A stretch of 64,000 nucleotides of DNA. Source: an uncultured Actinomycetes bacterium. Its GTDB lineage: Bacteria; Actinomycetota; Thermoleophilia; Gaiellales; JAICJC01. A program made the position numbers and the translations under genes. Positions 18,764 to 40,593 of the stretch are shown here, piece after piece. The stretch spans positions 24,756 to 88,755 of the forward strand of contig CAVTSO010000013.1 in NCBI GenBank assembly GCA_963737445.1. The letters run 5' to 3'. The notes under the pieces were generated by a model. That model ran no database searches. It was not told where the DNA came from and saw only the letters and a program-made list of their open reading frames with translations. Numbering within the stretch: the first letter of the stretch is position 1; each line of letters begins with the position of its first letter.

Positions 18764-18804
18764 GCGGCTCGCAGGATACGCCAGCCTGGGATCGCCGCGG
18801 ATGG

Positions 18805-18990: not shown

Positions 18991-19087
18991 GGTTGCCTCC
19001 ACTCGATACTACGGACGCGAGCGGCCGTCGGTTCGGTTCCCGCCGCCGCGGCACGGCCGTCGCCGGCCGGGCCGTACAATCGCCGTG

Positions 19088-19160
19088 GGGCCGTTAGCTC
19101 AGCTGGTAGAGCAGGGGACTTTTAATCCCAAGGTCGCAGGTTCGATCCCTGCACGGCCCA
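19088..19160 (+). tRNA. tRNA-Lys (anticodon UUU)
   Basis: GGGCCGTTAGCTCAGCTGGTAGAGCAGGGGACTTTTAATCCCAAGGTCGCAGGTTCGATCCCTGCACGGCCCA. Canonical arms are present. CCA is not encoded. Confidence 0.9.
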
Positions 19161-23211: not shown

Positions 23212-23955
23212 CTATTTCCGGGAATCGCGTTCGCCGACCATCAGCTGCTCGAGCCGCCTGGCCATCCGCGGCCCCGCGGCCGAGTCCTCGTGCTTGAAGT
23301 AGCAGTAGACGTCGCTGCCGTCGTCCAGCGCAGCCTGGATCCGCCCGGCCCACACGTCGAGCTCGGAGTCGCTGTAGGCAGCGCGTCGCAGTCGCAGGTA
23401 TCCGAACGGCTGCCACACCAGCTCGTCCCCGCGGGCAGCGGCGTCGTCTGTGTCGGCAACACAGCGTGCTATCTGCCGCTCGGCCAGGAATGGCCAGGCT
23501 GCACGCCAGCTGGGGTGGCGGAACTCCATCACCGCCCCGATCCCCGGCGGCAGCCCGTCGGCGAGCGCCGCCAGCAGCGGCTCGTCGTACTCCACGGTCG
23601 GCGGGCACTGGAACAGGACCGGTCCCAGCCGGTCTCCGAGCACGGCCGCCTCGTTCATGAACGCGCGCACCTCCCCGGCCACGCCGCGCAGCCGTCGCAC
23701 GTGCGTGATCCGCTGATTGGCCTTGAGGGTGAACCGAAACCCTTCCGGCGTCTGCTGGAGCCACGAGGTGAGCACCTTCTGCGACGGAAACTTGCGGAAC
23801 GTGTAGTTGATCTCGACCGACCGAAAGATCGTTGCATAGTACGACAACATGCGCGAGGCGGGCAGACCCTCCGGGTAGAAGACGCCGTGGCGCCACTCGT
23901 CGTACCCGAACCCGGAGGTGCCGAGGTAGAGCGTTCCGGCCATGGCTGGCATCAT
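23212..23955 (-). CDS. DUF72 family protein (second paralog)
   Basis: GTLYLGTSGFGYDEWRHGVFYPEGL...YYATIFRSVEINYTFRKFP is the typical DUF72 N-terminus. Confidence 0.8.
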   Translation of the reverse strand: MMPAMAGTLYLGTSGFGYDEWRHGVFYPEGLPASRMLSYYATIFRSVEINYTFRKFPSQKVLTSWLQQTPEGFRFTLKANQRITHVRRLRGVAGEVRAFMNEAAVLGDRLGPVLFQCPPTVEYDEPLLAALADGLPPGIGAVMEFRHPSWRAAWPFLAERQIARCVADTDDAAARGDELVWQPFGYLRLRRAAYSDSELDVWAGRIQAALDDGSDVYCYFKHEDSAAGPRMARRLEQLMVGERDSRK

Positions 23956-24652: not shown

Positions 24653-26098
24653 ATGTTCAGCCTTGACACCGGCCGCGACGTGCTCACTCCCGACCAGCTC
24701 GACCAGGTGCACGAGCGGGCGATGACGGTGCTTGAGGAGATCGGCACGGACGTGCGCCACCCGGCGGCGCTCGAGATGCTGGCCGGGCTCGGCCAGAAGA
24801 TCGACGGCGAGCGTGTCCACTGGGATCGCGAGTTCGTGATGGAGATGCTGGCCCAGGCGCCGCATGCGTTCACGCTGCGGGGTCGCAACCCCGAGCGGGC
24901 GGTGCGGCTGGGCGACTCGAAGCCGGTGCTGACGCCGGTGGGCGGCTCGCCCTTCTGCTCCGACCTCGAGCGCGGACGCCGGGACGGCACGTACGCCGAC
25001 CACGTCGAGCTGATCAAGATGGCGCAGGCCGCCGACCTGATCACCTGCAACCAGAGCGGCACCGTCGAGGCCGGCGATCTCGATGAGAACAGCCGCCACA
25101 TGGACATGGACTACTCGGTGCTGCGGTACTCCGACAAGCCGCACGTCTGTTACGGCACCTCCGGGCCGAAGGCGCGGGACGCCGTCGCCCTGGCGGCGAT
25201 CGCGTGCGGCGGTCGCGAGGCGATCGAGCAGACGCCGGCGCTGATGGGGATCGTCAATCCCAACAGCCCGCTGGTCTGGGACTTCCTGATGGTGGATGCG
25301 TTGTCGGAATGGGCATCGGCAGGACAGCCCGTGGTGATCACGCCGTTCCTGCTGGCCGGGGCGACAGCGCCGATCACGATCGCCTCCGGGCTGGTGCTGA
25401 AGGTGGCGGAGGCGTTGTCTGGCGTGGCACTGGTGCAGGCGATCCGGCCCGGTACGCCCGCCCTGTTCGGATCGTTCTTCACCGCCGTGGACATGCGCAC
25501 CGGCGGTCCCGCCTTCGGCACGCCTGAGTCGGTGCTGGGGACGCTGGCCGGGGGCCAGCTGGCACGGCGGTACGGCCTGCCCTACCGGGGCGGCGGCGGC
25601 CTCTGCTCGTCGAACTCGCTGGACATGGCGTCGGCGGCGGAGACGGCCATGACGCTGTGGGCGACGATGCTGTCCGGCTCGCACCTGGTGATGCACGCCG
25701 CCGGCTGGCTCGAGGGCGGCCTGACGGCGTCGTACGAGAAGTTCGCGATCGACCTCGAGATGCTGCGGATGTTCGCGATGATCGACGAGGGCATCGACAC
25801 CAGCGAGGAGCGGTTCGCGATCGACGCGATGCGGGAGGAAGGGCCGGGCGGGATGTTCCTGGCCGCCGACCACACGCTCGCGCACTTCCGGGAGTGGATG
25901 TTCATGAGCCCGCTGTTCCGCTCGCAGGCCTACGTGACCTGGCAGAAGCAGGGCTCGGCCACCACCGCCACGCTGGCCACCGCCGAGTGGAAGAAGCTGC
26001 TCGAGAGCTACGTGGATCCCGGCATCGACCCGGCCGTCGACGAGGAGCTGCAGGAGTACATGCAGCGGCGCAGGGCCGAGATTGAGGCGGCCCTCTGA
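24653..26098 (+). CDS. MttB-superfamily methyltransferase, non-pyrrolysine type (paralog 1; glycine betaine/quaternary amine:corrinoid methyltransferase-like)
   Basis: Full-length 481-aa MttB-like sequence with no in-frame stop (...NPNSPLVWDFLMVDAL...GQPVVITPFLLAGATAPIT...FGTPES...). Confidence 0.85.
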   Translation: MFSLDTGRDVLTPDQLDQVHERAMTVLEEIGTDVRHPAALEMLAGLGQKIDGERVHWDREFVMEMLAQAPHAFTLRGRNPERAVRLGDSKPVLTPVGGSPFCSDLERGRRDGTYADHVELIKMAQAADLITCNQSGTVEAGDLDENSRHMDMDYSVLRYSDKPHVCYGTSGPKARDAVALAAIACGGREAIEQTPALMGIVNPNSPLVWDFLMVDALSEWASAGQPVVITPFLLAGATAPITIASGLVLKVAEALSGVALVQAIRPGTPALFGSFFTAVDMRTGGPAFGTPESVLGTLAGGQLARRYGLPYRGGGGLCSSNSLDMASAAETAMTLWATMLSGSHLVMHAAGWLEGGLTASYEKFAIDLEMLRMFAMIDEGIDTSEERFAIDAMREEGPGGMFLAADHTLAHFREWMFMSPLFRSQAYVTWQKQGSATTATLATAEWKKLLESYVDPGIDPAVDEELQEYMQRRRAEIEAAL

Positions 26099-28194
26099 TG
26101 GGCCGGGAGCACCGTCACGACATCCTGTTCGAGCCGGTGCGGATCGGGCCGAAGACGCTGCGCAACCGGTTCTACCAGGTGCCTCACTGCACCGGCTTCG
26201 GGGTCGAGAAGCCGTGGACGCAGGCGGCGTTCCGAGGGATGAAGGCGGAGGGCGGCTGGGCGGCGGTGTGCACCGAGTACTGCTCGATCAGCCCCGAGTC
26301 CGACGAGACGCCCTACGTGTCGGCGCGGCTGTGGGATGACGAGGACATGCGGGCGCTGCAGATGATGACCGACTGCGCGCACTCCCACGGCGCGCTGGCC
26401 GGGGTCGAGCTGTGGCACGGCGGCGTCTACGCCGAGGGCCGCGAGTCGCGGCTGCCGCAGCTGGCGCCGTCGCAGATCAGCAGCGACCTGGACAGCGTTG
26501 TGGTGCCAAAGACGATGGAGCCGGCCGACATCCGGCGCGCGCAGGGGGAGTGGGTCGCGGCCGCGAAGCGGGCACGCGGCGCCGGGTTCGACATCATCTA
26601 CGTGTACGGGTCACATACCTACCTGCCCACGCAGTTCCTGTCGCCGGTGTACAACCGGCGCACCGACGCATACGGCGGCAGCTTCGAGAACCGCGCGCGC
26701 TTCTGGTTGGAGGCGATCGAGCTGGTCAAGGAGGCGGTCGGCGACGACGTCGCGATCGCCGTGCGGATCGCCGCCGATTCCCTGGAGCTGTCCGGGGTCC
26801 CGATCGAGGAGGGGCTCGAGTTCATCCGCGCGGCCGACCCGATGGTCGACCTATGGGACGTGGTGATCGGCTCGATGTGGGGGGCGGGACGGCTCGACTC
26901 GGGCCCCTCGCGGTTCTTCGACCAGGGCTACCAGATGACCTGGTCGGGCCGGGCCCGCGAGGCGACCGAGAAGCCGATCGTGGTGGTGGGCAGGTTCACC
27001 GACCCCGACCGGATGGCGAACCTGGTGCGTGGCGGCACAGTCGACCTGATCGGCGCGGCGCGGCCGTCGATCTCGGACCCGTTCCTGCCGGAGAAGATCG
27101 AGCAGGGACGCTACGACGAGATCCGCGAGTGCATCGGCTGCAACGCCTGCTACTCGCGGTCGATCTGGGGCCGGCATCTGGGCTGCACGCAGAACGCCAC
27201 CGCAGGCGAGGAGTACCGGCGCGGGTGGCATCCGGAGCGGTTCGATCACGCCGAGAACGCCGACCGGTCGGTGCTGGTGGTGGGCGCCGGCCCGGCCGGC
27301 ATGGAGTGCACCACGGTGCTGGGCAAGCGCGGCATGGAGCTGGTGCACCTGGTGGACGGGGCCGACGACATCGGTGGCTGCATGAGCTGGATCACGCGCA
27401 TGCCGGGACTCGGGACGTGGGGCCACGTGATTGACTACCGGCGTGCACAGATGGACCGGCTGGACAACGTCTCGCTGGGGCTCGGCACGCGGCTGTCGGC
27501 GGCCGACGTGCTCGACTACGGCGCCCAGATCGTGATCGTGGCGACTGGTTCGCACTGGGCCGGAGACGGCATCAGCGGTGTCACGCGGCTGCCGATTCCC
27601 GGCGCGGATGCCACGCTGCCCCACGTGCTGACGCCGGAGCAGGTGATGGTCGAGGGCAAGCGCCCGCCCGGCAGCCGGGTGGCGGTCGTCGACTACGAGG
27701 GCTACTTCGTCGGTTCGGCGCTGGCCGAGCAGCTGCGCAGCGACGGTTACGAGGTCGAGTTCGTGACAAGCCACGAGGCGGTCGCGCCCTACTGCGATCA
27801 GACGCTCGAGGGCCGGCCGGTGCGGGAGCGGCTGAACGCGATCCGGGTGCCGGTGCACCGGGCGGTGGTGGTCGACCGGATCGACGAGGGCGGGATCGAC
27901 CTGGTGGGCGAGTTCCAGGCCACGTCGCGGCTGGCGGTGGACGGCGTGGTGCTGGTCACGCAGCGGCTCTCGGACGAGGCCCTGTACCGCGAGCTGGCGG
28001 GCGACCCGGCCGCCCTCGAGGCGGCCGGGATCGAGGCGGTCTACCGGATCGGCGACTGCGTCGCACCGCGCCTGATCGCGGACGCGATCTTCGACGGCCA
28101 CCGCCTGGCTCGCGAGATCGACTCGCCCGACCCGGAGCGTCCGTTGCCCTACCTACGCGAGCGGCCGCTGATGGCGGGAACGCCGGCCGGCTGA
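26098..28194 (+). CDS. trimethylamine/dimethylamine dehydrogenase-family (DgcA-like) FMN/4Fe-4S/ADP-binding flavoprotein
   Basis: N-terminal OYE-like TIM barrel with YQVPHC, which aligns with the Cys of 6-S-cysteinyl-FMN in TMADH. Cys cluster CIGCNACYSR...C followed by VLVVGAGPAG. The ATG overlaps the MttB1 stop (TGATG). Confidence 0.85.
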   Translation: MGREHRHDILFEPVRIGPKTLRNRFYQVPHCTGFGVEKPWTQAAFRGMKAEGGWAAVCTEYCSISPESDETPYVSARLWDDEDMRALQMMTDCAHSHGALAGVELWHGGVYAEGRESRLPQLAPSQISSDLDSVVVPKTMEPADIRRAQGEWVAAAKRARGAGFDIIYVYGSHTYLPTQFLSPVYNRRTDAYGGSFENRARFWLEAIELVKEAVGDDVAIAVRIAADSLELSGVPIEEGLEFIRAADPMVDLWDVVIGSMWGAGRLDSGPSRFFDQGYQMTWSGRAREATEKPIVVVGRFTDPDRMANLVRGGTVDLIGAARPSISDPFLPEKIEQGRYDEIRECIGCNACYSRSIWGRHLGCTQNATAGEEYRRGWHPERFDHAENADRSVLVVGAGPAGMECTTVLGKRGMELVHLVDGADDIGGCMSWITRMPGLGTWGHVIDYRRAQMDRLDNVSLGLGTRLSAADVLDYGAQIVIVATGSHWAGDGISGVTRLPIPGADATLPHVLTPEQVMVEGKRPPGSRVAVVDYEGYFVGSALAEQLRSDGYEVEFVTSHEAVAPYCDQTLEGRPVRERLNAIRVPVHRAVVVDRIDEGGIDLVGEFQATSRLAVDGVVLVTQRLSDEALYRELAGDPAALEAAGIEAVYRIGDCVAPRLIADAIFDGHRLAREIDSPDPERPLPYLRERPLMAGTPAG

Positions 28195-28438: not shown

Positions 28439-29254
28439 TCAGCTGGGCGTGATGCCGAGCCGGATCGTGTAGCCGATCAGCATCGGCCGCGGCTCGGGCA
28501 GCCGTTCCCGGGCGATGCGCATGAGCGCGTCCATCGTCTCCTCCAGCTCGGGCGCGCGGCCGTCGAAGATCGCGGTGGGGCCGCCCAGCGAGTGGGCGAG
28601 GTCGATCACCGCTTCCGCGTGGGCCGTCGTCTTGGCGTGGCAGTGCACCTCGCGTGCGAAGGCGAACAGCCCGCTCTCGCGCAGGCGGGCCACGTGCTCG
28701 CACTTCGGCCACTGCGACGCCCCGGCGTGGATGCCCAGCCGCTCCCGCGCCGCCCAGCGCACGTCGATCACCGCCGCGAAAGCCGCGTCGACCTGCGGCT
28801 CGATCACCGGCACGACGTCGTAGTCGTACGCGCCGAACACGCCGCCGGGACGGAGCACCCGCGCAACCTCCGGCAGCACCGCGCCCGGGTCCATCCAGTG
28901 AAACGACTGCGCGCAGGTGACGATGTCGGCCGAGCCGGCCTCGAGGCCGGTCGCGTCGGCGTAGGCCTCCGCGAACGTGACGTTGGCGTCGGCGGTCGTC
29001 GATCGCGCCCGGGCCAGCATCGCCGGGTTCGCCTCCACGCCGACCACCCTCTCGGCGCGGGCTGCCCAGGCTCGGCTCGAGAGCCCCGTTCCGCTGCCCA
29101 GGTCGACAACGAGCCTCGGCCGGCCACCCGCGCAGCGTGTCAGCACGTCGAGCACGACCGCCGGAGGACTGGGACGGGCGCCGTCGTAATGGTCGGCGAA
29201 CCCCTCGTTCGCGTACCCCGACCGCCCTATCAGATCGCGCGAGAAGGTGCTCAC
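28439..29254 (-). CDS. class I SAM-dependent methyltransferase
   Basis: Motif I VVDLGSGTGLSS and post-I/II motifs (..IVTCAQSFHWMD...LRPGGVF). Confidence 0.8.
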   Translation of the reverse strand: MSTFSRDLIGRSGYANEGFADHYDGARPSPPAVVLDVLTRCAGGRPRLVVDLGSGTGLSSRAWAARAERVVGVEANPAMLARARSTTADANVTFAEAYADATGLEAGSADIVTCAQSFHWMDPGAVLPEVARVLRPGGVFGAYDYDVVPVIEPQVDAAFAAVIDVRWAARERLGIHAGASQWPKCEHVARLRESGLFAFAREVHCHAKTTAHAEAVIDLAHSLGGPTAIFDGRAPELEETMDALMRIARERLPEPRPMLIGYTIRLGITPS

Positions 29255-29284: not shown

Positions 29285-29572
29285 GTGATGGCGGAGTACC
29301 GGATCACCTACTGGCGCGAGATCCCCTCGATGGTGACCGCCCGCGACGGTGCGGCCACGTCCAAGGCGGCGCTGCCCGGCCGCTTCCAGGAGGCCATCGA
29401 TGAGGCCGCCATGCGCCAGGGCATGGTCGGCTCCGACGCCTACCTGGAGCAGTGGCATCATGGAGAATGGGAGCGGGCGGACGGAACGCCCGACGAGCTG
29501 GTCGCCACTCTGTCGGAGCGGCTCGACAACGACTACGACGCGGCGCGCCTGGAATCGCTGCTGGAGGTGTGA
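29285..29572 (+). CDS. small protein, probably of the 'virulence factor' (PF13769-like) family that accompanies methyltransferase operons
   Basis: YRITYWREIPSMVTARDG...FQEAIDEAAM. Its stop overlaps the next start (TGATG). The family assignment is from memory and is tentative. Confidence 0.5.
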   Translation: MMAEYRITYWREIPSMVTARDGAATSKAALPGRFQEAIDEAAMRQGMVGSDAYLEQWHHGEWERADGTPDELVATLSERLDNDYDAARLESLLEV

Positions 29573-30465
29573 TGGGACAGATCGCGACACTGCTGGGAGA
29601 CACCCGGCCGGCGCTCAGCGACGGCGCCATCGGCACCATGCTGCAGGCGGCCGGTCTCATGCCCGGCGCCTCGCCCGAGATCTGGAACGTCGAGCGCGCC
29701 GATGCCATGCGCGTGATCCACACCGCCTACGCCGATGCCGGGGCGCGTCTGCTCACCACGAACACCTTCGGCGGCACCCGCCCCCGCCTCGCCCTGCACG
29801 GCCACGAGGATCGCGTGCACGAGCTGAACGAGGCCGGAGCCCGCATCGCCCGCGACGTGGCCGACGCCTGCGGTGCGCTGGTGCTCGGCAGCATCGGCCC
29901 TACCGGCGACCTGATGGAGCCGCTGGGGCTGCTCGGCCACAACGACGCCGTCGACCTGTTCGCCGAGCAGGCCGGCGGCCTGGCCGCCGGCGGCGCCCAC
30001 ATCCTGCTGTTCGAGACGTTCAGCGATCTGGGCGAGGTGCGGGCCGGCGTCGAGGGTGCGCGCCGTGCCGCACCCGACGTGCCCGTGGCCGTGACCATGA
30101 CCTTCGACCTGAAGGGCCATACGATGATGGGCGTCAGCCCGTCGCAGGCGCTGGCCGAGATATCCGCGCTCGATGTCGAGCTGATCGGCGGGAACTGCGG
30201 CAGCGGGCCCGACGAGATCGAGGCGGTGATGGTGACCATGTCCGCCGAGCGTCCGGACGGCGTGCTGCTGCTCGCCCAGAGCAACGCCGGCCTGCCGCAG
30301 CTGGTCGGCGACGAGTTCCGCTACGGCGGCACGCCCGAGGTGATGGCCGACTACGCCCTGCGCATGCAGGAGCTGGGTGTCGATGTGATCGGCTCATGCT
30401 GCGGCAGCACGCCGTCGCACACGGCAGCGATGCGCGAGGCGCTCGGCCTGCACGTGCAGACCTAG
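29572..30465 (+). CDS. homocysteine S-methyltransferase domain protein (stand-alone MetH N-terminal-like module)
   Basis: DGAIGTMLQ...TNTFGG...ETFSDL...GGNCGSGP...GSCCGSTP. The Zn-binding Cys, Cys-Cys pattern of the Hcy-binding barrel is present. Confidence 0.8.
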   Translation: MGQIATLLGDTRPALSDGAIGTMLQAAGLMPGASPEIWNVERADAMRVIHTAYADAGARLLTTNTFGGTRPRLALHGHEDRVHELNEAGARIARDVADACGALVLGSIGPTGDLMEPLGLLGHNDAVDLFAEQAGGLAAGGAHILLFETFSDLGEVRAGVEGARRAAPDVPVAVTMTFDLKGHTMMGVSPSQALAEISALDVELIGGNCGSGPDEIEAVMVTMSAERPDGVLLLAQSNAGLPQLVGDEFRYGGTPEVMADYALRMQELGVDVIGSCCGSTPSHTAAMREALGLHVQT

Positions 30466-30481
30466 CCTGATCAACCATCTA
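30466..30481. repeat. solo copy of the GATGGTTGATC terminal motif, on the minus strand directly after the ferredoxin stop
   Basis: CCTGATCAACCATCTA matches 13 of 15 positions of the right terminus of the element at 41250-41264. Confidence 0.4.
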
Positions 30482-30667
30482 GCCCTCGATCGTGATCGAC
30501 ATGGTCGGGCACGCGTCCGCGGCCGCCTCCACGTCGTCGCGCAGCGCCTCGTCCACGTCCGCCTGATAGCGCAGTAGCTGCGGCGACACCAGCTGGAACA
30601 CCTCCGGGCACTCGATCATGCACTGCCCGTGGTGTTGGCAGGTCTGCTCGTCGACCACCACCCTCAT
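30479..30667 (-). CDS. small ferredoxin (P450-associated type)
   Basis: 62 aa, MRVVVDEQTCQHHGQCMIECPEVF...ADACP. The ATG overlaps the P450 stop (ATGA). Confidence 0.75.
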   Translation of the reverse strand: MRVVVDEQTCQHHGQCMIECPEVFQLVSPQLLRYQADVDEALRDDVEAAADACPTMSITIEG

Positions 30668-31881
30668 CCCACGACCTCCCGGTCGAACGCGATCGGCAGC
30701 TCCACCGGCCCCGTCAGCCCGCTCACCGGCCGCACCACCGGCTCCGCGGTGTAGCGCGGGTTCGGCATCCGGCGCGCGATCAGCGGCAGCGCCTCGCGCA
30801 TGTCGATCCGCGCCAGCCAGTGCCCGATGCAGTGGTGCGCGCCACCGCCGAACCCGAAGTGCGGCGGCCGCTCGGCCGTGATGTCGAACCGCCCGCCCTC
30901 GCCCACCGCCAGCGGGTCGGTGTTGGCGGGGTACGACAGCAGGTGCAGCGTCGTGCCCTCCGGCAGCGCCAGCCCGCCGAACTCCATGTCCTCCGTGGTG
31001 CGACGCGTCGCCCACATCACCGTCGGGTTCCAGCGGATCAGCTCCTCGACCGCGTTCGGCGCCAGCTCCGGCCGCTCGGCCAGAAGCGCGCACTGGTCGG
31101 GGTGCTCGACGAACAGCTGCATCGCCAGCCCCAGCTGGTTCTTGGTCGTGTCCATCCCCCCGAACACGATCAGCGACACCATCGCCAGCAGTTCGATGTC
31201 CGACAGCGACCCCTCCTCGGCGTCGTGCGCCTGCACCAAACTCGAGACCACGTCGTCGCGCGGCCGCACCCGCCGGTCGGCGATCAGCTGCTCCGACACC
31301 GCGTACAGGTTCTGCAGCGCATCCTCGATTCGTCCCTGGTCTTCGCGGATCGTGACGCCGAACGACAGCCCCAGATCGGTCGACCATCGCGACAGGTCGT
31401 GCCAGCGCGCCTCGTCCATGCCGATCAGCTTGCACAGCACCCGCGCCGCGTAGGGCTCAGCGAACTGCGAGACGAACTCGCAGCCGCCCTCGGCCGCGTA
31501 CGCGTCGATCAGCTCGTCGGCCAGCGCCCGGAACTCCGGGCTCATCCGCTCGATCAGCGTCCGCGAGAAGGCCGGGTTGGCCAGCTTGCGCAGCCGCCGG
31601 TGGTCGTCGCCCTCCTTGCTGAGCATGATCTCGGCCCACCACTCCGATAGCAGCCCGTCTTCGATGCCGTTCTGGGCCGGCCAGGCGAAGCTGCCCTGCC
31701 GCAGCCGCCGGTCCTTCAGAAGCGCGCTCACCTCGTCGTAGCGGAGCACGGCCAGGCCGAAGTTGGTGCGCGCCCACCAGCTCTGCTCGCGCGCCGCCGC
31801 CACGGCCGCGGACGAGGCGGAGAAGAAGGGATCCGAGATGTCGAACGACGGGACGTCGGCGGTGTCGATCGAGAGCGTCAT
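30664..31881 (-). CDS. cytochrome P450
   Basis: Haem-thiolate loop FGFGGGAHHCIGHWLA, an EELIRW (ExxR) motif and an I-helix-like FGGMDTT. Confidence 0.9.
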   Translation of the reverse strand: MTLSIDTADVPSFDISDPFFSASSAAVAAAREQSWWARTNFGLAVLRYDEVSALLKDRRLRQGSFAWPAQNGIEDGLLSEWWAEIMLSKEGDDHRRLRKLANPAFSRTLIERMSPEFRALADELIDAYAAEGGCEFVSQFAEPYAARVLCKLIGMDEARWHDLSRWSTDLGLSFGVTIREDQGRIEDALQNLYAVSEQLIADRRVRPRDDVVSSLVQAHDAEEGSLSDIELLAMVSLIVFGGMDTTKNQLGLAMQLFVEHPDQCALLAERPELAPNAVEELIRWNPTVMWATRRTTEDMEFGGLALPEGTTLHLLSYPANTDPLAVGEGGRFDITAERPPHFGFGGGAHHCIGHWLARIDMREALPLIARRMPNPRYTAEPVVRPVSGLTGPVELPIAFDREVVG

Positions 31882-31897: not shown

Positions 31898-33337
31898 TCA
31901 GTCGCCGAGCTCTTTCCGGCGCCGGGTGACGAAGTCGGTAAGCTCCTGGCGCAGCTCCGGGTCGATCGCGGGCGGCTCGTACTGCTCCAGCCGCTCGCGC
32001 CAGATCTCGCCGGCCCGCTCCGTCGCGTCCCGCTCGCCCAGCCGCTTCCAGCGCTCGAAGTTCTCTGTCGACGACAGCAGCGGCCGGTAGAAGCAGTCGC
32101 GGAACCGCTCCAGCGTGTGCGCCGCGCCCAGGAAGTGCCCGCCCGGGCCCACCTCCTCGTGCGCCCCGAATGCGAGCGAGGCCTCGTCCACCTCGAGCGG
32201 GGTGAACTCGACCTTCAGCATCCGCAGCACCTCGATGTCGACGATGAACTTCTCGTAGCACGAGACCAGGCCGGACTCCAGCCAGCCGGCCGAGTGCATG
32301 ACCCAGTTGGTGCCGGCCAGGAAGGTCGGGATCATGGTCATGCAGGCCTCGTAGGCCGACTGCGCGTCCACGGTCTGGCTGGACGTGAAGCCGCCGCCGG
32401 ACCGCCACGGCAGGCCGAAGTGGCGGGCGATCTGGCCGGTGCAGAACAGGCCTGTCGCCGACTCCGGGGTGCCGAAGCTGGGCGACCCCGACTGCATGTC
32501 GGTGTTCGAGAGGAACGACCCGAAGATCACCGGCGCGCCCGGCCGCAGCAGCTGCGCCAGCGCGATCCCCGCCAGCGCCTCGGCCATCTGCTGGACGAGC
32601 GTCGCCGGGATCGTTACCGGCGACATCGCGCCCATCAGCAGGAACGGCGTGATCACGACCGGCTGGCCGGCGCGCACGTACTCGAACATGGCCGCCAGCA
32701 TGCGGTCGTCGTAGCGCAGCGGCGAGTTGACGTTGATCAGCCCGATCACGCCCGGCGTGCGCTCGATCGACTCGCGTCCGCCGAGCAGCATCTCGGTCAT
32801 GCGCACCGAGTCGGCCGCGTTGGGCCCGGAGGTGACGGAGCCCATGTAGGGCTTGTCGGTCAGCGTCTGCAGCGCGAACACCATGTCCAGGTGGCGGGAG
32901 TCGAGCGGCCGGTCGTTGGGCTCGCAGATGGTGCCGCCGGCCGAGTCGAGCTCGTCGAACGACTGGGACAGCATGGTCAGCCGCTCGAAGTCCTGCATCG
33001 TGGCGTCGCGGCGGATGTCGCCCTCGCGCACGAACGGCGGCCCGTAGACCGACGCGAACGCCATGTGATCGCCGCCGATGTGGATGTTGTGCTCGGGGTT
33101 GCGGGCCTGCACGTCGAACTCGTGCGGCGCCTTCGCCACCTGTTCGAGCACGAAGTCGGGGTCGAGGAAGACCTTATCGCCGTCGGTCTTCTGGCCGGCC
33201 TTGGCGAACACCTCGACCGCCTCCGGCAGGATGAACTCGACGCCGATCTCCGAGACGATGCGCCGCCAGCCCCCGTCCAGGGTGGCGATCGCCTGCTCTG
33301 ACAGAATCTCGTAGCGCGGCATCCGGTTGACGAACAT
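31898..33337 (-). CDS. MttB-superfamily methyltransferase, non-pyrrolysine type (paralog 2)
   Basis: Full-length MttB-like sequence (..NVNSPLRYDDRMLAAMFEYVRAGQPVVITPFLLMGAMSPVT..FGTPES..) with no in-frame stop. I chose the ATG at 33337, which follows GGGAGAGGG. Confidence 0.85.
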   Translation of the reverse strand: MFVNRMPRYEILSEQAIATLDGGWRRIVSEIGVEFILPEAVEVFAKAGQKTDGDKVFLDPDFVLEQVAKAPHEFDVQARNPEHNIHIGGDHMAFASVYGPPFVREGDIRRDATMQDFERLTMLSQSFDELDSAGGTICEPNDRPLDSRHLDMVFALQTLTDKPYMGSVTSGPNAADSVRMTEMLLGGRESIERTPGVIGLINVNSPLRYDDRMLAAMFEYVRAGQPVVITPFLLMGAMSPVTIPATLVQQMAEALAGIALAQLLRPGAPVIFGSFLSNTDMQSGSPSFGTPESATGLFCTGQIARHFGLPWRSGGGFTSSQTVDAQSAYEACMTMIPTFLAGTNWVMHSAGWLESGLVSCYEKFIVDIEVLRMLKVEFTPLEVDEASLAFGAHEEVGPGGHFLGAAHTLERFRDCFYRPLLSSTENFERWKRLGERDATERAGEIWRERLEQYEPPAIDPELRQELTDFVTRRRKELGD

Positions 33338-33362
33338 TCGCCCTCTCCCTAAGATCTTGGTA

Positions 33363-33382
33363 TGTGGAACAATCGTTCCACA
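33363..33382. promoter_or_regulatory. palindrome TGTGGAAC-aatc-GTTCCACA in the 45-bp divergent region between MttB2 and the IclR gene (candidate IclR operator)
   Basis: Perfect 8-bp arms, read directly. It abuts or overlaps the IclR ATG (33382) and lies 26-45 bp upstream of the MttB2 ATG. Confidence 0.5.
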
Positions 33383-34164
33383 TGATGAGTCGAAAAGCAA
33401 TGACCGGAACCCAGGCGATAGATCGTGCCGCCCAGCTGCTCGTCCTCGTCGTCGAGAACGAGTCGTCGAGCAGCGTCGGCGAGCTGGCCGAGGCCGCCGG
33501 ACTCCCCAAGAGCACCGTGTCGCGCGCCGTGTCGGCGCTCGAGCGGCAGGGCCTGGTGCAGCGGAGCAGCGCCCGCGGCAGCATCCGCCCGGGGCCGGTG
33601 CTGCTGGGCCTGGCCCGGCGGGGCGTCGGCGAGGAGGACATCGCCGAGCTGTGCCGCGAGGCGCTCGACAACCTGGCCGACGCCACCGGCGAGACCATCG
33701 ACCTGGCGGTCGCCGTGCCGGGCGGCTCCGAGCAGTACATCGCCCAGGTCGACAGCCGCCACATCCTGGGCACCACCAACTGGGTGGGACGGCGCCTGCC
33801 CCACCACTGCACCGCGGTCGGCAAGGTGCTGGTCGCGTTCGGCGCGGCGGGCCTCCAGCGGGGCGCGCTGGAGCGGCTCACCCCCGACACCATCACCGAT
33901 CGCGACGCGCTGTCGGCAGAGCTGGATACGGTGCGGGTATGCGGATATGCGACCGCCGTGGGCGAGCTGGAGCCGGGCCTGGTGGCCGTTGCGGCGCCGG
34001 TGCTTGATGCCGATGGCCGGGCCGTGGCTGCGATCAGCATCTCGGGGCCGCAGTTCCGGATACCGAGCGATCGGCTGGACGGGTTTGGCAAACTCCTGAC
34101 GAAGGAGACGGAAACGCTTTCGGCGCGCCTGGGATTCCGGCCGGCCGGGGAGGGAGCAGCATGA
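33382..34164 (+). CDS. IclR family transcriptional regulator
   Basis: N-terminal HTH (VGELAEAAGLPKSTVSRAVSALERQGLV) and a C-terminal IclR effector domain (..GELEPGLVAVAAPVLDADGRAVAAISISGP). Confidence 0.85.
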   Translation: MMSRKAMTGTQAIDRAAQLLVLVVENESSSSVGELAEAAGLPKSTVSRAVSALERQGLVQRSSARGSIRPGPVLLGLARRGVGEEDIAELCREALDNLADATGETIDLAVAVPGGSEQYIAQVDSRHILGTTNWVGRRLPHHCTAVGKVLVAFGAAGLQRGALERLTPDTITDRDALSAELDTVRVCGYATAVGELEPGLVAVAAPVLDADGRAVAAISISGPQFRIPSDRLDGFGKLLTKETETLSARLGFRPAGEGAA

Positions 34165-34829
34165 CCACCGACGAGATCCTGCAAGGGCTGTTCGACAACA
34201 CGCTGATCGGAAACGCGCCGGCCGTCAAGGACCTCACCAACGAGGGGCTGGCCATGGGCATGGATCCCGAGACGCTGCTCTATGACGCCCTGATCCCGTC
34301 GCTGGAGGAGGTGGGCGCCCGCTTCGAGCGCGGCGACTTCTTCGTCCCGGAGATGCTGATTGCCGCGCGGGCAATGCAGGGCGCCCTGGACATCCTGCGC
34401 CCATTGCTGGCCGAGACCGGCGCCAAGCCGATCGGCACGTTCGTGATGGGCACCGTCAAGGGCGACGTGCACGACATCGGCAAGAACCTCGTCAATATCA
34501 TGCTCGAGGGCGCCGGCTTCACCGTATACGACCTGGGCGTGAACGTGGCGCCCGAGAAGTTCGTGGAGCAGGTGCAGGAGCACGAGCCCGACATCGTCGG
34601 CTTCTCGGCCTTCCTGACAACAACCATGCCGATGTTCAAGGCCAACATCAACGCGCTCGAGAAGTCGGGCCTGCGCGACCGCGTGATCGTGATGGTGGGC
34701 GGCGCGCCGGTGACCCAGGAGTACGCCGACGCGGTCGGCGCCGACGGCTACGCCGCCGACGCGTCCACCGCGGTGCGCCTCGCCAAGACCCTGATCGAGA
34801 ACCGCCGATCGGCGGCGACGCCGGCATGA
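34161..34829 (+). CDS. cobalamin (corrinoid)-binding protein, cap plus Rossmann B12 domain
   Basis: B12 lower-ligand motif GDVHDIGKN plus ..SAFLTTTM.. and ..VGGAP.. The ATG overlaps the IclR stop (ATGA). Confidence 0.9.
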   Translation: MTTDEILQGLFDNTLIGNAPAVKDLTNEGLAMGMDPETLLYDALIPSLEEVGARFERGDFFVPEMLIAARAMQGALDILRPLLAETGAKPIGTFVMGTVKGDVHDIGKNLVNIMLEGAGFTVYDLGVNVAPEKFVEQVQEHEPDIVGFSAFLTTTMPMFKANINALEKSGLRDRVIVMVGGAPVTQEYADAVGADGYAADASTAVRLAKTLIENRRSAATPA

Positions 34830-35707
34830 CCCAGGCCGTCTCCGAACGGTTGCGGTCGCTGGCCGCCACGGCCAGCATCGAGGTGACGCCGCGCCACGTG
34901 GCCGCCGTGACCGAGCTCGACGGCGTGTTGCCCGCCGGGACATCGGTCTACATCACAGCGCTTCCGGGAGCCGACCCATGCGACCTGGTGACGGCCGCCG
35001 AGACCATCCGCGCCGCCGGCCACGTGCCGGTGCCGCACCTGACGGCGCGCGCTATCGCCGGCGACGAGGCGCTGGATGCGCTGCTCTCGCAACTCCGCGA
35101 GCGCGCCGCGGTCGACGACGTGCTCGTGATCGCGGGCGGAGGGGCGACGGTCGCCGGCGACTACTACAGCTCTATGGACGTGCTGCGGTCGGGCCTGCTG
35201 GAGCGACACGGCATCTTTCGCGCCGGCGTCGCCGGGCACCCCGAGGGCAGCCCCGACATCTCACCCGAGGCGATCCTCGAGGCCCTCGCCGAGAAGAACG
35301 CCTTCGCCGCCGCATCGGCGATCGAGCTGCGCATCGTCAGCCAGTTCGCGCTGGCGCCCGAGCCGTACGTGACCTGGGAGCGCGGGCTGCGTGAGGCGGG
35401 AAACCGGCTGCCGGTGGTGGCAGGCATCCCCGGCGTGACCTCGCCCCCCTCGCTGCTCAAGTTCGCGCTGGCCTGTGGCATCGGCCCCTCCGTGGAGGTG
35501 CTCCGCAAGCAGTCGGGCGGGTTGCTGAAGCTGGCAACGACCCGGCTGTGGCGGCCCGACCAGCTGGCCGAGGACATCGCGCAATCGACTGTCCACGATC
35601 CCGGCAGCCTGATCGAGGGCCTGCATCTGTTCCCCTTCGGCGGGGTCGAGCGATCGGCCCGATGGCTGGCCGAGATGCGCACCGCGCCGGCTGCGGTGCC
35701 GGGATGA
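34826..35707 (+). CDS. methylenetetrahydrofolate reductase (MetF)-like protein
   Basis: MTHFR-like barrel segments (SIEVTPR...VPHLTAR...VLVIAGG...GVAGHPEG...IVSQFA...IPGV). The ATG overlaps the upstream stop (ATGA). Confidence 0.7.
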   Translation: MTQAVSERLRSLAATASIEVTPRHVAAVTELDGVLPAGTSVYITALPGADPCDLVTAAETIRAAGHVPVPHLTARAIAGDEALDALLSQLRERAAVDDVLVIAGGGATVAGDYYSSMDVLRSGLLERHGIFRAGVAGHPEGSPDISPEAILEALAEKNAFAAASAIELRIVSQFALAPEPYVTWERGLREAGNRLPVVAGIPGVTSPPSLLKFALACGIGPSVEVLRKQSGGLLKLATTRLWRPDQLAEDIAQSTVHDPGSLIEGLHLFPFGGVERSARWLAEMRTAPAAVPG

Positions 35708-35725: not shown

Positions 35726-36589
35726 ATGCAGACCACCATTGAGTCGCGGTCGCGCACGGTCGTGATCGGGGACGGCGCGCCGTTCTGCGTGATCGGCGAG
35801 CGCATCAACCCCACCGGCCGCAAGGCCTTCCAGGCGCAGCTGCAGGCCGGCGACCTGTCGCAGCTCGAGATCGACGTGGCCGAGCAGGTGGCCGGCGGCG
35901 CCGACGTGCTCGACGTCAACGTGGGCGATCCGCTGGCCGACGAGATCGAGCTGATGCGGGCTGCCGTGCCGATGGTGCAGGGCCTGACCGACCTGCCGCT
36001 GTGCATCGACTCCTCCATCATCGAGGCGCTCGAGGCCGGCCTCGGGGCGTACGAGGGCAAGGCGCTCGTCAACTCGGTCACCGGTGAGGACGAGCGGCTG
36101 AACCTGATCCTGCCGATCGTGGCCCGCCACGGCGCGGCGGTGATCGGCCTCGCCAACGACGACGAGATCCCGATGGAGCCGGAGCGCCGGCTGGAGGTGG
36201 CCCGCAAGATCGTCTCGGCCGCCGGCGACCACGGCATCCCGCCGCAGGACGTCGTGATCGACCCGCTGGCGATGCCGGTCGGCGCCGAGCCGCGCGCGGT
36301 CACGCTGTTCCTGGAGACGGTGCGGCTGATCCGCGACGACCTGGGCGTGAACATGACCTGCGGCGCCAGCAATACCTCGTTCGGGCTGCCCGGCCGCCAC
36401 ACCCTGGGCGCCGCCTTCCTGGCGGTCTCACAGAGCCACGGGTTGACCAGCGCCATCATGGACGCGCGCGCTCGCGAGTGCGTCGAGTCGGTGCGAGCCA
36501 CCGACTTCCTGCTCGGCCAGGACGAGTGGGGCGCGCGCTGGATCGCCGCGCACCGGGCCAAGCTGGCGGCGCAGGCCGCGACAAGCTAG
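35726..36589 (+). CDS. pterin-binding methyltransferase (methyl-corrinoid:tetrahydrofolate methyltransferase; MetH pterin domain/AcsE-like)
   Basis: VIGERINPTGRK...DVLDVNVG...LCIDSS...ALVNSV...GASNTSFGLP are typical DHPS-like pterin barrel motifs. Confidence 0.8.
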   Translation: MQTTIESRSRTVVIGDGAPFCVIGERINPTGRKAFQAQLQAGDLSQLEIDVAEQVAGGADVLDVNVGDPLADEIELMRAAVPMVQGLTDLPLCIDSSIIEALEAGLGAYEGKALVNSVTGEDERLNLILPIVARHGAAVIGLANDDEIPMEPERRLEVARKIVSAAGDHGIPPQDVVIDPLAMPVGAEPRAVTLFLETVRLIRDDLGVNMTCGASNTSFGLPGRHTLGAAFLAVSQSHGLTSAIMDARARECVESVRATDFLLGQDEWGARWIAAHRAKLAAQAATS

Positions 36590-36591
36590 CG

Positions 36592-38451
36592 GTGTCGGTG
36601 GACGCCGAGACGATCGAGCCAGGAACCGGACGCGTCCGGCTGACGTTCGCGCCCGACGGCGGCGAGGTGCGCGTCCCGGCCGGCACCACCGTGTTCGACG
36701 GGGCCAGCTGGAACGGCATCGCCATCGACTCGACCTGCGGCGGCCACGGCACCTGCAAGAAGTGCAAGGTGCGGATCACCGACGGCGAGGTGCCGGTCGA
36801 CACGCTGGATCCGCGCGCGTTCAGCCCCGACGAGCTGCGCGGCGGCTGGCGGCTGGCCTGCCGCGCGATCGCCACCCACGACCTCGCCGTCGAGGTGCCG
36901 CCGCTGCAGACCCGCCCCAAGGCGGCGCTGGTCGGCGTCGGCCGCCACGTGATCCTGCGCCCGTCCGTGCAGAAACGCTTCCTGGAGCTGGAGGAGCCGT
37001 CGCTCGAGGACCAAGCGGCCGACATGGAGCGCGTGGTGGATGCGGTCGAGGACTTCGAGCTGCGGGTTGAGCTGGGCGCCGCGCGCGGCATCGGCCGCAC
37101 CCTGCGGTCATCCAACTTCAAGGTCACCGCCGTCATCTGCGACGACGTGCTGATCGACGTCGAGCCCGGTGACACCACCGAGCGGCGCCACGCGATCGCC
37201 TTCGACCTGGGCACGACCACGGTGGTGGCGACGCTGCTCGACCTCGCCACGGGCCAGCCGCTGGCCGTGCGCTCGATGCTGAACCGCCAGCAGCCGTTCG
37301 GCGCGGACGTGATCTCGCGCGTCTCGGCCACGATGATGGACCCGGACGCGCTGGAGATGCTCCAGCAGCGGGCGCATGAGACGATGAACGGCCTCGCCGG
37401 CGAGGTCTGCGAGGAGGCCGGCCTGTCCCCGACGGAGGTGTACGAGATCGTGGTCTGCGGCAACGTCACGATGATGCAGCTGGCGCTGGGCATCGACCCC
37501 GAGCCGCTGGGCATGTCACCCTTCATCATCACCGCCCGGCGGCTGCCGCCGGCGGTTGCCTCCGACTTCGGCGTGCGCGTGCACCCGCGCGCGCCGGCCG
37601 CCGTGTTCCCGGCGCTGGGCGCCTACGTGGGCGGAGACATCGTCGCCGGCATGCTCGCCACCGGCCTCACCCGCGACCGCCGCGTGCGCCTGTTCATCGA
37701 CGTCGGCACCAACTCCGAGATCGCGCTCGGCTCGAGCGAGCGGGTGGTCGCAACTGCAGCGCCGGCCGGGCCCGCATTCGAGGCCGCCCAGATCCGCTGC
37801 GGCATGCGTGCCGCCGAGGGCGCGATCGAGGGCGTCGCGATCAGCGGCGAGGAGATGTCCCTTGAGGTGATCGGCGACGCCACGCCGGTCGGCATGTGCG
37901 GCTCCGGCCTGGTGGATGCCGTCGCCCAGCTGGTGGCGGCCGGCCTGCTCGACCACTCCGGCCGCTTCATCCCCGACGCCGCCGCCGCCGAGCTGCACCC
38001 GCAGCTGAGCACGCGTCTGGTGAAGGTGGGCGAGGAGCGGGTGTTCGTGCTGGCATGGCGCGGAGACGACCCCGCGAACTCGATCTACCTGTCGCAGCGC
38101 GACGTGCGCGAGCTGCAGTTCGCCAAGGCCTCGATCGCGACCGGCTGGCGGATCCTGATCAAGGAGCTCGGCCTCGGCGAGGACGAGATCACCCAGGTGC
38201 TGCTGGCGGGCAGCTTCGGCAGCTACCTGTCGCCTGCCAGCGCCGTGCGCATCGGCCTGGTGCCGAAGCTGGCGCTGCCGCGCATCATCTCGGCCGGGAA
38301 CGTGGCCGGTGAGGGCGCCAAGATGGCGGCGCTGTCGCTGCGGGAGCGGGCGGCGGCCGACGCGATTCTGGATGAGGTCGAGTACGTGGAGCTGTCCGGG
38401 CGGGCAGACTTCAACGACATGTTCATGGACGAGCTGGCGTTCCCGGGATGA
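36592..38451 (+). CDS. corrinoid reductive activase (RACo/RamA-like): 2Fe-2S ferredoxin domain plus ASKHA ATPase domain
   Basis: N-terminal [12 protein letters not shown] plant-type ferredoxin motif. ASKHA-like [11 protein letters not shown]...[12 protein letters not shown]...MCGSGL follows. The GTG start is 2 nt after the upstream stop. Confidence 0.8.
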
Positions 38452-39026
38452 CGACGGCCGTGATCGCATGCGGCGCGCTCGCCTTGCACGTGAACGCCAT
38501 CGCCGAGCGGCGCGGCTGGGAGATCGATGTGCACCCGCTGCCGCCGGAGCTGCACAACCGCCCGGAGCAGATCGCACCTGCCGTCGGCCGTCTGGTGGAC
38601 GAGCTGGCCGGCCGCTACCAGCGCGTGGCGGTCGCCTACGCCGACTGCGGCAGCTACGGAGCGCTCGACCACGAGCTCCGTCGCCGCGGCATCGAGCGGC
38701 TGGAGGGCGACCACTGCTACGACGTGTTCGGGAGGCCGGAGGTGGCCGAGGCGCTGGCCGAGCAGCCCGGCACCTACTTCCTGACCGATTTCCTGGCGCG
38801 CACCTTCGACCGCACGGTCTGGCGGTCGCTGGGCCTCGACCGGCATCCCGAGCTGCGCGACGACTACTTCCACTCCTACACCCGGGTGATCTGGCTGGCG
38901 CAGCGGCGAACGCCCGACCTGCTGGAGCTGGCCGAGCGGGCGGCCGCCATGCTGGGGCTGCCGCTGGAGGTGCGCGACGTGGGCGAGTCGGGGCTGGAGG
39001 CACAGCTGGAGCGCCTCGCGGCATGA
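38448..39026 (+). CDS. DUF1638 domain protein
   Basis: [11 protein letters not shown]...[11 protein letters not shown]...GDHCYDVF...YFLTDFLAR. Start and stop both overlap the neighbours (ATGA on both sides). Confidence 0.75.
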
Positions 39027-40153
39027 GCGACGCGACCTCGATGCGCGCGGCACTGCTGCCCGCTCCGGGCACGCCGCTGCGGGTGGTCGAGCTCGAGCTG
39101 GCCGCGCCCGGCCCCGGTGAGGTGCTGGTGCGTCTGCGCTCCAGCGGCGTCTGCCAGGACGACCTGAACCTGCTCGACGGCACGGTCGACGTGCCCGCCC
39201 CGGTCGTGCCCGGCCACGAGGGAGCCGGCGTCGTCGAGGCTCTGGGCGAGGGCGTGCAGGGGCTTGCGCCCGGCGATCACGTGGCGCTGTCCTGGGCCCC
39301 CTACTGCGGCAGGTGCGAGGAGTGCCTGCGCGATCTGCCGCACCTGTGCGGCACGGCCTGGCCGCTGATGCTGGGCGGCGGTCTGCTCGACGGCACCACC
39401 CGCCTCCGCTTCGGCGGGGCGGAGGTGCACCACTACTGCTTCCTGTCCACCTTCGCGGAGCGTGCGGTCGTGCCCGCCCGGTCGTGCGTCCAGATCCCCG
39501 CCGACGTGCCGTTCGAGGTGGCGGCGCTGCTCGGCTGTGCGGTGACGAGCGGCGTCGGCGCCGTCTGGCGCACCGCCGGCGTGCGGCCGGGCGAGCGGGT
39601 GGCGGTGATCGGTACCGGCGGCACCGGGCTCTCGGCTGTGATGGGCGCGGTCGCCTCGGGTGCGTCGCAGGTGATCGCCGTCGACCGCCGGCACGAGCGC
39701 CTCGAGCGCGCCCAGCAGCTCGGGGCCAGCGCCGTCGTGCAGTGGCAGGGTGAGCCGGAGCGGGTCGCCGAGGCGGTGGTGTCGGCCAGCGGCGGCGGCG
39801 TCGACTACGCCATCGACTGCACCGGACGGCCCGGTCCGATGCGGGCCGCGTTCCTGTCCACGCGCAAGCGGGGAGCCGCCGTGATGGCCGGCATCCCGCG
39901 CGCCGAGGCCGAGCTGACGGTGCCCGCGCGGTCGATCCCGCGGATGGAGCGACGGGTGCTGGGATCGATCTACGGGTCGGCCCGGCCCGACCGCGACTTC
40001 CCGCTGATCCTCGACGCCTACCGGCGCGGACGGCTGCCGCTCGACCGGCTGATCTCACACCGGCTGACCCTGGACGAAGTCGGCGCCGGCATCGACGCGG
40101 TGCGCTCGGGCGATGCCACGCGGGTGGTGCTCGACCTGGGAGGCGACGCGTGA
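39023..40153 (+). CDS. zinc-dependent alcohol dehydrogenase family (class III / formaldehyde dehydrogenase-like)
   Basis: GVCQDDL...[16 protein letters not shown]...CGRCEECL (structural Zn Cys cluster)...[12 protein letters not shown] (NAD fold). Confidence 0.8.
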
Positions 40154-40593
40154 GCGAGCCCGCGACCGGCGGCTGCCTGTGCGGCGCAGTGCGTTACGAG
40201 GTGCGGGGGCCGCTGCGCGACATCCTGATCTGCCACTGCGTCGAATGCCGGCGCTGGCACGGCAACGTTGCGGCCAGCACCGCGGCTGCCCGCGGCGATC
40301 TGGTCCTGACCGGGCAGCGCGGGCTGCGCTGGATCGCCGGCCCCGAGAGCGACGCGCACGCACGCCGGGGCTTCTGTGGCGAGTGTGGTTCCAGCCTGTT
40401 CTGGGACGCGCCTGGGCGTGACTACGTCGCGATCGCGGCCGGGTCGCTGGACGGCGAGACCGGGCTGCGCATCGCCGGCCACTGGTTCACCTCCCAGAAA
40501 GGCGACTGGTACGAGCTGCCCGACGATGGCCTGCCACACCACGAGCGCTCGGCCGCGGTCGAGGGCGGCTCGCCGAGTGGTAAAGTGATTTGA
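40150..40593 (+). CDS. GFA (glutathione-dependent formaldehyde-activating enzyme/CENP-V) family protein
   Basis: GGCLCGAVRYEV...CHCVECRRWHG...FCGECGSSLFW. The GTG overlaps the ADH stop (GTGA). Confidence 0.8.
   Translation: MSEPATGGCLCGAVRYEVRGPLRDILICHCVECRRWHGNVAASTAAARGDLVLTGQRGLRWIAGPESDAHARRGFCGECGSSLFWDAPGRDYVAIAAGSLDGETGLRIAGHWFTSQKGDWYELPDDGLPHHERSAAVEGGSPSGKVI

Follow-up and report, generated by a model that had tools for sequence, protein, structure and literature searches.

In Phaeobacter inhibens, methionine synthesis is carried out by three separate proteins, with PF02574, with PF00809 and with PF02607 plus PF02310, and also needs a RamA-like protein that combines a ferredoxin domain with DUF4445 and a DUF1638 protein; for each of the five genes, mutants are methionine auxotrophs that are rescued by methionine (Price 2018, PMC5764234). 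In Ruegeria pomeroyi, mutants in mtgC and mtgD are unable either to synthesize methionine or to grow on glycine betaine (Mausz 2025, PNAS, PMC12478193). The latter study names the MttB-family protein MtgB and the homocysteine (Hcy) module MtgE, reinterprets the 'Bhmt' of Sinorhizobium meliloti as an MtgE that is dispensable for betaine demethylation, reports that MetF2, RamA and DUF1638 are induced on N-osmolytes, and assigns 5% of oceanic mtgC reads to Actinomycetota (PMC12478193). More recently, MtgBCD and MtgECD were treated as competing complexes with MtgC and MtgD in common (preprint 10.64898/2025.12.19.695462). A split methionine synthase whose B12 carrier is common to betaine demethylation is already published (2018, 2025). 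Here we describe a 64,000-nucleotide stretch of contig CAVTSO010000013.1, from an uncultured Actinomycetes bacterium (hereafter, the window), in which a gene for a stand-alone Hcy S-methyltransferase is coupled to a small gene of the PF13769 family and lies close to genes of this kind. We conclude that the window probably holds the aerobic cobalamin-dependent MtgBCDE system in an actinobacterial, Gaiellales-like form. What is new is the PF13769 neighbour, a conserved and previously unreported member of the system.

The two coupled genes lie on the forward strand. The first (29285-29572, +) encodes a small protein of 95 amino acids that matches PF13769 ('Virulence_fact') with an E value of 2.3e-19 and a score of 70 bits, above the Pfam gathering cutoff of 25; from the ATG at 29288, the start used in homologues, the product has 94 amino acids. 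The second (29572-30465, +) encodes a predicted Hcy-binding zinc methyltransferase of the MtgE/Bmt type, to which PGA1_c13370, SPO1884 and SMc04325 belong; it is a protein of 297 amino acids in which PF02574 (S-methyl_trans) is the only Pfam domain (residues 15-291, E 4.7e-61). At the junction (...ctggaggtgTGATGgga; core gtgTGATGgg, with GGAGG just upstream), the TGA stop of the PF13769 gene (29570-29572) and the ATG of the Hcy gene (29572-29574) have one base in common, as the initial annotation had reported when it described the pair as translationally coupled. A longer open reading frame for the Hcy protein, starting at GTG 29452, is not supported because homologues start at MGQIATLL.

The initial annotation had also noted separate B12-binding, pterin-binding and RACo genes near the Hcy gene, and these are indeed present 3.7, 5.3 and 6.1 kb downstream. 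A DUF1638 gene, absent from that annotation, completes a group of four that lies 3.7-8.6 kb from the Hcy gene. The corrinoid protein (34161-34829, +; 222 amino acids, B12-binding_2 and B12-binding) is a predicted MtgC-like methyl carrier. The pterin-binding methyltransferase (35726-36589, +; 287 amino acids, Pterin_bind E 5e-25) is MtgD-like, which would make it a reversible methyl-corrinoid:tetrahydrofolate methyltransferase, and it scores 295 bits against NF005719, over the cutoff of 259. The RACo/RamA-type ATP-dependent reductive activase (36592-38451, +; about 619 amino acids) has all four domains in order (Fer2, RACo_linker, Raco_middle and RACo_C_ter). Its listed reading frame starts at 36478, but the true start is likely GTG 36592, because this codon lies 3 nt past the mtgD stop and a homologue in a related locus (L001) has 617 amino acids. 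The DUF1638 protein (38448-39026, +; 192 amino acids) matches PF07796 with an E value of 3.7e-24.

These genes form part of a tightly packed operon, iclR-mtgC-metF2-mtgD-RACo-DUF1638-ADH-GFA, in which adjacent genes overlap by 4 nt at stop and start or are 3-18 nt apart. Its first gene encodes an IclR-family regulator (33364-34164, +; HTH_IclR and IclR_C), syntenic in L001 and in many GTDB loci, whose stop overlaps the mtgC start (ATGA). In the MetF2 position lies a gene for a divergent methylenetetrahydrofolate reductase (MTHFR)-like protein (34826-35707, +; 293 amino acids) with a weak PF02219 match (E 2.8e-5) and 34% identity (tblastn) to a Pseudorhodobacter gene that sits between PF13769 and mtgD; it seems to represent a divergent subfamily of MTHFR that is confined to such operons. 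The counterpart of this gene in L001 has no Pfam match on record, and in other lineages and loci MTHFR_C plus MTHFR occupies the same slot. The operon ends with a Zn-dependent alcohol/formaldehyde-type dehydrogenase gene (39023-40153, +; ADH_N and ADH_zinc_N), joined to the DUF1638 gene by an ATGA overlap, and a gene for a glutathione-dependent formaldehyde-activating (GFA) family protein (40150-40593, +; GFA domain). The coupling of these two genes to the operon end suggests that formaldehyde handling is tied to oxidative demethylation.

Compared with the mtg cluster of S. meliloti strain Ak57 (record CP090106.1, labelled pSymB, 3.7 Mb), identities of the window proteins are 46% for PF13769, 43% for the Hcy module, 46% for the corrinoid protein, 46% for the pterin protein, 32% for RACo, 41% for DUF1638 and 41-43% for MttB. 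Like the systems of R. pomeroyi DSS-3 and S. meliloti, the window has separate MtgB, MtgC, MtgD and MtgE, a RamA-like activase, DUF1638 and MetF2 beside mtgD, with dimethylglycine/sarcosine genes nearby. The window differs in belonging to a Gaiellales-like member of the Actinomycetota; in the location of mtgE within the cluster, a gene reported to lie mostly elsewhere in marine bacteria (PMC12478193); in the translational coupling of mtgE to a PF13769 gene, which PMC12478193 does not mention; and in its IclR regulator and ADH/GFA tail. The split methionine synthase of P. inhibens likewise has separate Hcy (PF02574), pterin (PF00809) and B12 (PF02607 plus PF02310) genes and is reactivated by ferredoxin plus DUF4445/RACo and DUF1638 rather than by a PF02965 domain. 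However, its genes are scattered over several sites, while those of the window lie in one 10-kb region together with MttB genes, and PF13769 is not among its five identified genes (PMC5764234). Because these claims about the locus concern gene content and not a statistical pattern, no chance model applies to them.

The identity of the Hcy protein is central to this reading. It consists of the Hcy S-methyltransferase barrel and nothing else, as had been claimed at the outset, and both cysteine motifs are in place (GGNCGSGP from residue 206 and GSCCGSTP from residue 274). C209, C276 and C277 are invariant when the protein is aligned with the MetH and MmuM of E. coli, S. meliloti Bmt and human BHMT, and the MetH-type TNTFG and ETF motifs are present. 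A PDB search returned the Hcy domains of MetH (8ssc, 1q7m) at E 4e-47, BHMT at 7e-16 and MmuM (5dml) at 6e-8. The S. meliloti bmt product is 43% identical over the full length (E 7e-74). Other NCBIfam models than the best one gave 236 bits for the YitJ type (cutoff 453), 148 bits for MetH TIGR02082 (cutoff 1010.85) and 68 bits for MmuM NF007020 (cutoff 215). By sequence, the protein resembles MetH and S. meliloti Bmt (the MtgE of Mausz et al.), not BHMT or MmuM, and MmuM-like and BHMT-like identities were set aside on scores and residues.

As a stand-alone PF02574 protein of about 300 amino acids, the Hcy protein has the build of MmuM, and it might on that ground be an enzyme of the MmuM/YagD type, recycling S-methylmethionine or (S,S/R,S)-S-adenosylmethionine (AdoMet) onto Hcy and unrelated to the corrinoid genes, the alternative already named in the initial annotation. 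We consider this highly improbable: the NF007020 score is far under its cutoff, the match to 5dml is remote compared with that to MetH, identity to E. coli MmuM is 24%, and no mmuP-type or S-methylmethionine permease gene is adjacent to the Hcy gene.

The MetH comparison extends beyond this one barrel. Canonical MetH (E. coli, Thermus and Thermotoga maritima; 8ssc, 1q7m) would have in common with the window its chemistry and module types, and the Hcy barrels can be aligned from end to end, including the zinc cysteine triad and the TNTF and ETF motifs. In MetH, however, the modules are joined in one polypeptide with an AdoMet-dependent reactivation domain, whereas the window has separate polypeptides, an ATP-dependent RACo and, through MttB, predicted extra methyl donors. 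Searches of the window (tblastn with Hcy, B12 and pterin queries) for a canonical single-polypeptide MetH with the PF02965 activation domain found single, separate sites only.

The predicted methyl donors would enter through two MttB paralogues, 43% identical to each other. The non-pyrrolysine MttB-family methyltransferase at 31898-33400 (-; 500 amino acids, PF06253 E 7e-185) is our candidate MtgB, and an MttB gene holds the same position in L001 and L008; the second paralogue (24653-26098, +; 481 amino acids) matches PF06253 with an E value of 1.4e-166. In the PDB, the first matches 4yyc ('Putative trimethylamine methyltransferase', 3e-127), 2qne ('Putative methyltransferase', 8e-122) and the glycine betaine methyltransferase 9yce (2.5e-121), and the second matches the same entries (8e-113, 5e-103 and 4e-103, respectively). 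E values of both paralogues against these three structures range from 1e-103 to 1e-127, compared with only ~1e-33 against the trimethylamine methyltransferase 7xcl (4e-34 for the first). We take 2qne to be the MtgB of Desulfitobacterium hafniense. Standing next to corrinoid and pterin genes, the window MttB is a candidate quaternary amine:corrinoid methyltransferase. The context points to glycine betaine as the substrate: the window has genes of a dimethylglycine-dehydrogenase-like type, and its relatives have GMC (choline-dehydrogenase-like) oxidoreductases. As summarized in PMC12478193, the anaerobic MtgB/MtgC/MtgA system of D. hafniense is similar in its non-pyrrolysine MttB, dedicated corrinoid protein, pterin enzyme that passes the methyl group to tetrahydrofolate, and RamA-type activation. 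It differs in that this summary describes no Hcy module for it, whereas the aerobic lineages have DUF1638 and PF13769, and the aerobic MtgC forms a separate clade (Mausz et al., PMC12478193).

We propose the following mechanism. The MttB-family enzyme at 31898-33400, and perhaps its paralogue, would methylate Co(I) MtgC with glycine betaine or a related quaternary amine as donor. From MtgC, the methyl group could take two routes: MtgD would move it to tetrahydrofolate for subsequent oxidation by the MetF2-like reductase, or the zinc enzyme MtgE would move it to Hcy, yielding methionine. When betaine is not available, MtgD would run in reverse and load MtgC from methyl-tetrahydrofolate, so that MtgC, MtgD and MtgE would together act as a split MetH. 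The ATP-dependent RACo/RamA protein and DUF1638 would restore Co(I) from oxidized Co(II), taking the place of the AdoMet/flavodoxin domain of MetH. The PF13769 protein would be a further conserved subunit, most likely an adaptor tied to MtgE and the activase, and the dimethylglycine product would be broken down by neighbouring flavoproteins. What is observed here is the domain content, the conserved gene order and the orthology with the cluster of S. meliloti; each of the catalytic steps is inferred from homology and from the context of the genes. The direct step from MttB-loaded corrinoid to Hcy is a model, in the literature as well. The initial annotation had suggested that the locus could assemble a MetH-like reaction in trans, a view that gains support from the 32-46% identity to the S. 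meliloti set and from published genetics of homologous proteobacterial systems. Its suggestion that RACo replaces the AdoMet reactivation domain agrees, by analogy, with RamA-like plus DUF1638 reactivation in P. inhibens (PMC5764234).

Several observations weigh against an MtgBCDE assignment. Both the Hcy protein and the corrinoid protein fall under the equivalog cutoffs of their best NCBIfam models, NF005718 'betaine--homocysteine S-methyltransferase' for the former (294 vs 338 bits) and 'glycine betaine-specific corrinoid protein MtgC' for the latter (209 vs 370 bits). In vitro, the purified Bmt of P. inhibens formed methionine with betaine or dimethylsulfoniopropionate (DMSP) as the direct donor (preprint 10.1101/2024.06.19.599700). 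A corrinoid cluster lies within 10 kb of the PF13769-Hcy pair in only 9 of 20 long loci. In the acI/Nanopelagicales lineage, the pair is found among housekeeping genes with no corrinoid genes within 10 kb, its neighbours being a SpoU methylase in L061 (10001-11189) and L036 (10004-11208), and an EF-G-like GTPase and ThrRS in L036.

The name of the best model and the Bmt assay are what would be expected if the Hcy protein were a self-sufficient BHMT/Bmt-like betaine (or DMSP)-homocysteine methyltransferase that converts betaine and Hcy to dimethylglycine and methionine and makes no use of corrinoid, its location reflecting betaine catabolism. The nearby dimethylglycine-degrading genes fit this explanation too, as do the acI-type pairs, some of which have dimethylglycine-dehydrogenase-like or CCG-domain genes within ~10 kb. 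Because purified P. inhibens Bmt used betaine and DMSP directly, a corrinoid-independent activity of the Hcy protein is conceivable. BHMT, as known from mammals and SAR11, and the window protein are alike in the PF02574 zinc barrel, in Hcy as the acceptor and in betaine as the predicted ultimate methyl source. However, the positions of BHMT W44, Y77 and Y160 are occupied by A, G and T in the window protein, as in MetH, and we take Trp44 and Tyr160 to be betaine-contact residues in BHMT structures. Tyr77 has a described role in betaine binding by BHMT (PMC3871600). In addition, the BHMT-specific loops and C-terminal oligomerization arm are absent, the window protein ending right after the barrel, and the PDB match to MetH Hcy domains is far stronger than that to BHMT. 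The S. meliloti 'Bhmt' is argued to be MtgE and not needed for betaine demethylation (PMC12478193), and the use of 200 uM enzyme for 2 h in the P. inhibens Bmt assay (preprint 10.1101/2024.06.19.599700) suggests a weak side activity. We therefore regard a self-sufficient enzyme of this type as unlikely, in keeping with the initial proposal of betaine-dependent methionine synthesis without BHMT.

The synteny data bear on a different explanation, namely that PF13769-Hcy is a housekeeping methionine-synthase module whose partner is encoded elsewhere (e.g., a MetH2-type protein with pterin, B12 and reactivation domains, as in some Rhodobacterales), and that the MttB neighbourhood is incidental. 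A MetH1/MetH2 split has been reported (preprint 10.64898/2025.12.19.695462), 11 of the 20 long loci have no neighbouring corrinoid genes, the acI pairs lie among translation genes, and two Hcy homologues with 60-62% identity stand alone, with no adjacent PF13769 gene called. Set against this, the cluster including the PF13769-Hcy pair recurs in other metagenome-assembled genomes (MAGs) of Thermoleophilia/Actinomycetes (L001, L008, L009, L010, L027 and L056), in a conserved order of PF13769-Hcy, mttB on the opposite strand and iclR-mtgC-metF-mtgD-RACo-DUF1638. The pair's place inside the cluster, which several Thermoleophilia species share with the window, and the fixed position of PF13769 in the proteobacterial mtgC-mtgD-RACo operon, which ties the pair to such a corrinoid system, make a partner elsewhere quite unlikely in our view. 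We retain the MtgBCDE assignment as the probable one.

The PF13769 family itself deserves closer attention. A profile search of 1.84 billion representatives yielded 1096 clusters at E <= 1e-3, mostly of 90-110 amino acids, and we followed the gene neighbourhood in two sets. The first comprised 80 GTDB species loci from Actinomycetota and Chloroflexota, 76 of them with room for a neighbour call. A PF02574 gene follows PF13769 directly on the same strand in 54 of these 76, and we estimate that the stop and start overlap in 29 of 56 PF13769-Hcy pairs, with a gap of 1-30 nt in 24. The order in Chloroflexota is RACo-PF13769-Hcy-DUF1638. In one Thermoleophilia subgroup (L018 10001-12030; L015 1865-3869; L016) a GMC (choline-dehydrogenase-like) oxidoreductase gene replaces the Hcy gene after PF13769, and this PF13769-GMC pair adjoins an mtg cluster that lacks an Hcy module within 10 kb. 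The GMC gene of L001 lies upstream of PF13769.

Proteobacterial-type loci present a different picture. There, PF13769 is found away from mtgE, in the fixed slot mtgC-DUF1638-PF13769-(MTHFR_C-MTHFR or MTHFR-like)-mtgD-RACo, as seen in S. meliloti, Shinella, Azoarcus and Pseudorhodobacter (L004 14001-14303; L005 12001-12336; L093 15001-15288). The second set, 80 metagenome loci (L095-L174) of which 73 have room downstream of PF13769, has one of the genes of this arrangement directly after PF13769 in 70 of these 73 and DUF1638 directly upstream in 32.

Gene fusions connect PF13769 to two components. In Terrarubrum flagellatum (L006 11001-13283), PF13769 is the N-terminal domain of a 760-amino-acid RACo protein, and PF13769-RACo fusions are also found in P0241, P0242 and P0293/L089. 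The L089 fusion (10001-12405) is 41% identical to the Terrarubrum example and adjoins mttB and dimethylglycine-dehydrogenase/electron-transfer flavoprotein genes; its RACo part is divided over three gene calls, probably by assembly frameshifts. More rarely, PF13769 is fused through a linker to S-methyl_trans, as in P0373 (444 amino acids) and, partially, in P0389, the only full-length case being on a 2-kb contig. Long PF13769 'fusions' with Ald_Xan_dh_C, Aldedh or ABM were dropped, as they look like fragments or read-through calls.

Because of the fixed proteobacterial slot, the coupling to mtgE, and the RACo and Hcy fusions, we assign PF13769 to the whole corrinoid methyltransferase/split MetH system; judged from this gene context, it is not specific to the Hcy module. 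The fusions indicate physical links of PF13769 with both the Hcy module and the activase. We give about an even chance to the stronger proposal that PF13769 is an unrecognized, near-universal subunit of the aerobic corrinoid methyltransferase/split methionine synthase that contacts both the Hcy module and RACo/RamA. Such a subunit could recruit the activase, together with DUF1638, to MtgE-MtgC, or could tether the individual barrels to one another, a part played in MetH by the covalent linkers; an adaptor role and a reactivation-accessory role are both offered as hypotheses. An AlphaFold2 model of the 95-amino-acid protein has an alpha/beta fold with a pLDDT of 94.8, and Foldseek found no PDB relative of it (best E 0.77). 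A literature search by the PF13769 identifier gave no paper, and the word 'virulence' is absent from the main text of PMC12478193, PMC5764234 and the preprints 10.1101/2024.06.19.599700 and 10.64898/2025.12.19.695462.

Other genes of the region are consistent with breakdown of betaine-derived products. The second mttB gene overlaps (TGATG) with a gene for a flavoprotein with FMN (old yellow enzyme, OYE, type) and FAD/NAD(P) modules (26098-28194, +; 698 amino acids; Oxidored_FMN E 1.3e-81, Pyr_redox_2, OYE-like second domain), which is DgcA/amine-dehydrogenase-like and probably acts on a demethylation product; the MttB-OYE pair is also present in L007 and L008. Further downstream lie genes for an Fe-S/CCG-domain protein (41254-43500, -; 748 amino acids; two CCG plus 4Fe-4S dicluster domains), a DgcB-like candidate electron-transfer partner, and for a dimethylglycine/sarcosine dehydrogenase-type protein (44953-47472, -; 839 amino acids) with FAD oxidase and folate-binding GcvT parts (DAO, FAO_M, GCV_T and GCV_T_C). 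A gene of the latter type is also found beside the mtg clusters of L001 and of metagenome loci.

The interval from the Hcy gene to mttB contains a gene for a small 4Fe-4S ferredoxin (30479-30682, -; Fer4_13/Fer4_15) and a cytochrome P450 gene (30664-31881, -; p450), which are probably not part of the core system (30479-31881). No gene was called at the position of this pair in L001; the window pair may be an insertion and could encode another demethylase. Directly upstream of PF13769 lies a class I SAM-dependent methyltransferase gene (28439-29254, -), which is divergently oriented in the window but shares the strand of PF13769 in L018 (9231-9974). SAM or cobalamin riboswitches were found neither in the window nor upstream of seven PF13769-Hcy pairs. 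The G+C content of the window is ~70%, and its closest protein matches are to Gaiellales or Thermoleophilia MAGs. The window also contains two DUF72 paralogues (6898-8040 and 23212-23955) and a divergent tRNA-Glu/tRNA-Lys pair (18690-19160), which have no relation to the finding.

The window is probably a fully clustered actinobacterial example of a known system and in that respect opens no new question. With it, the range of the system comes to include soil and freshwater Actinomycetota (Gaiellales/Thermoleophilia) as well as Chloroflexota, and as an unusually complete single locus that includes mtgE the window would be convenient for heterologous reconstitution. The 95-amino-acid protein is found with this system in different phyla and has no place in published models. 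Should activity or reactivation turn out to depend on PF13769, it would have to be included when MtgBCDE is reconstituted in vitro, and hundreds of 'virulence factor' annotations would then be put right.

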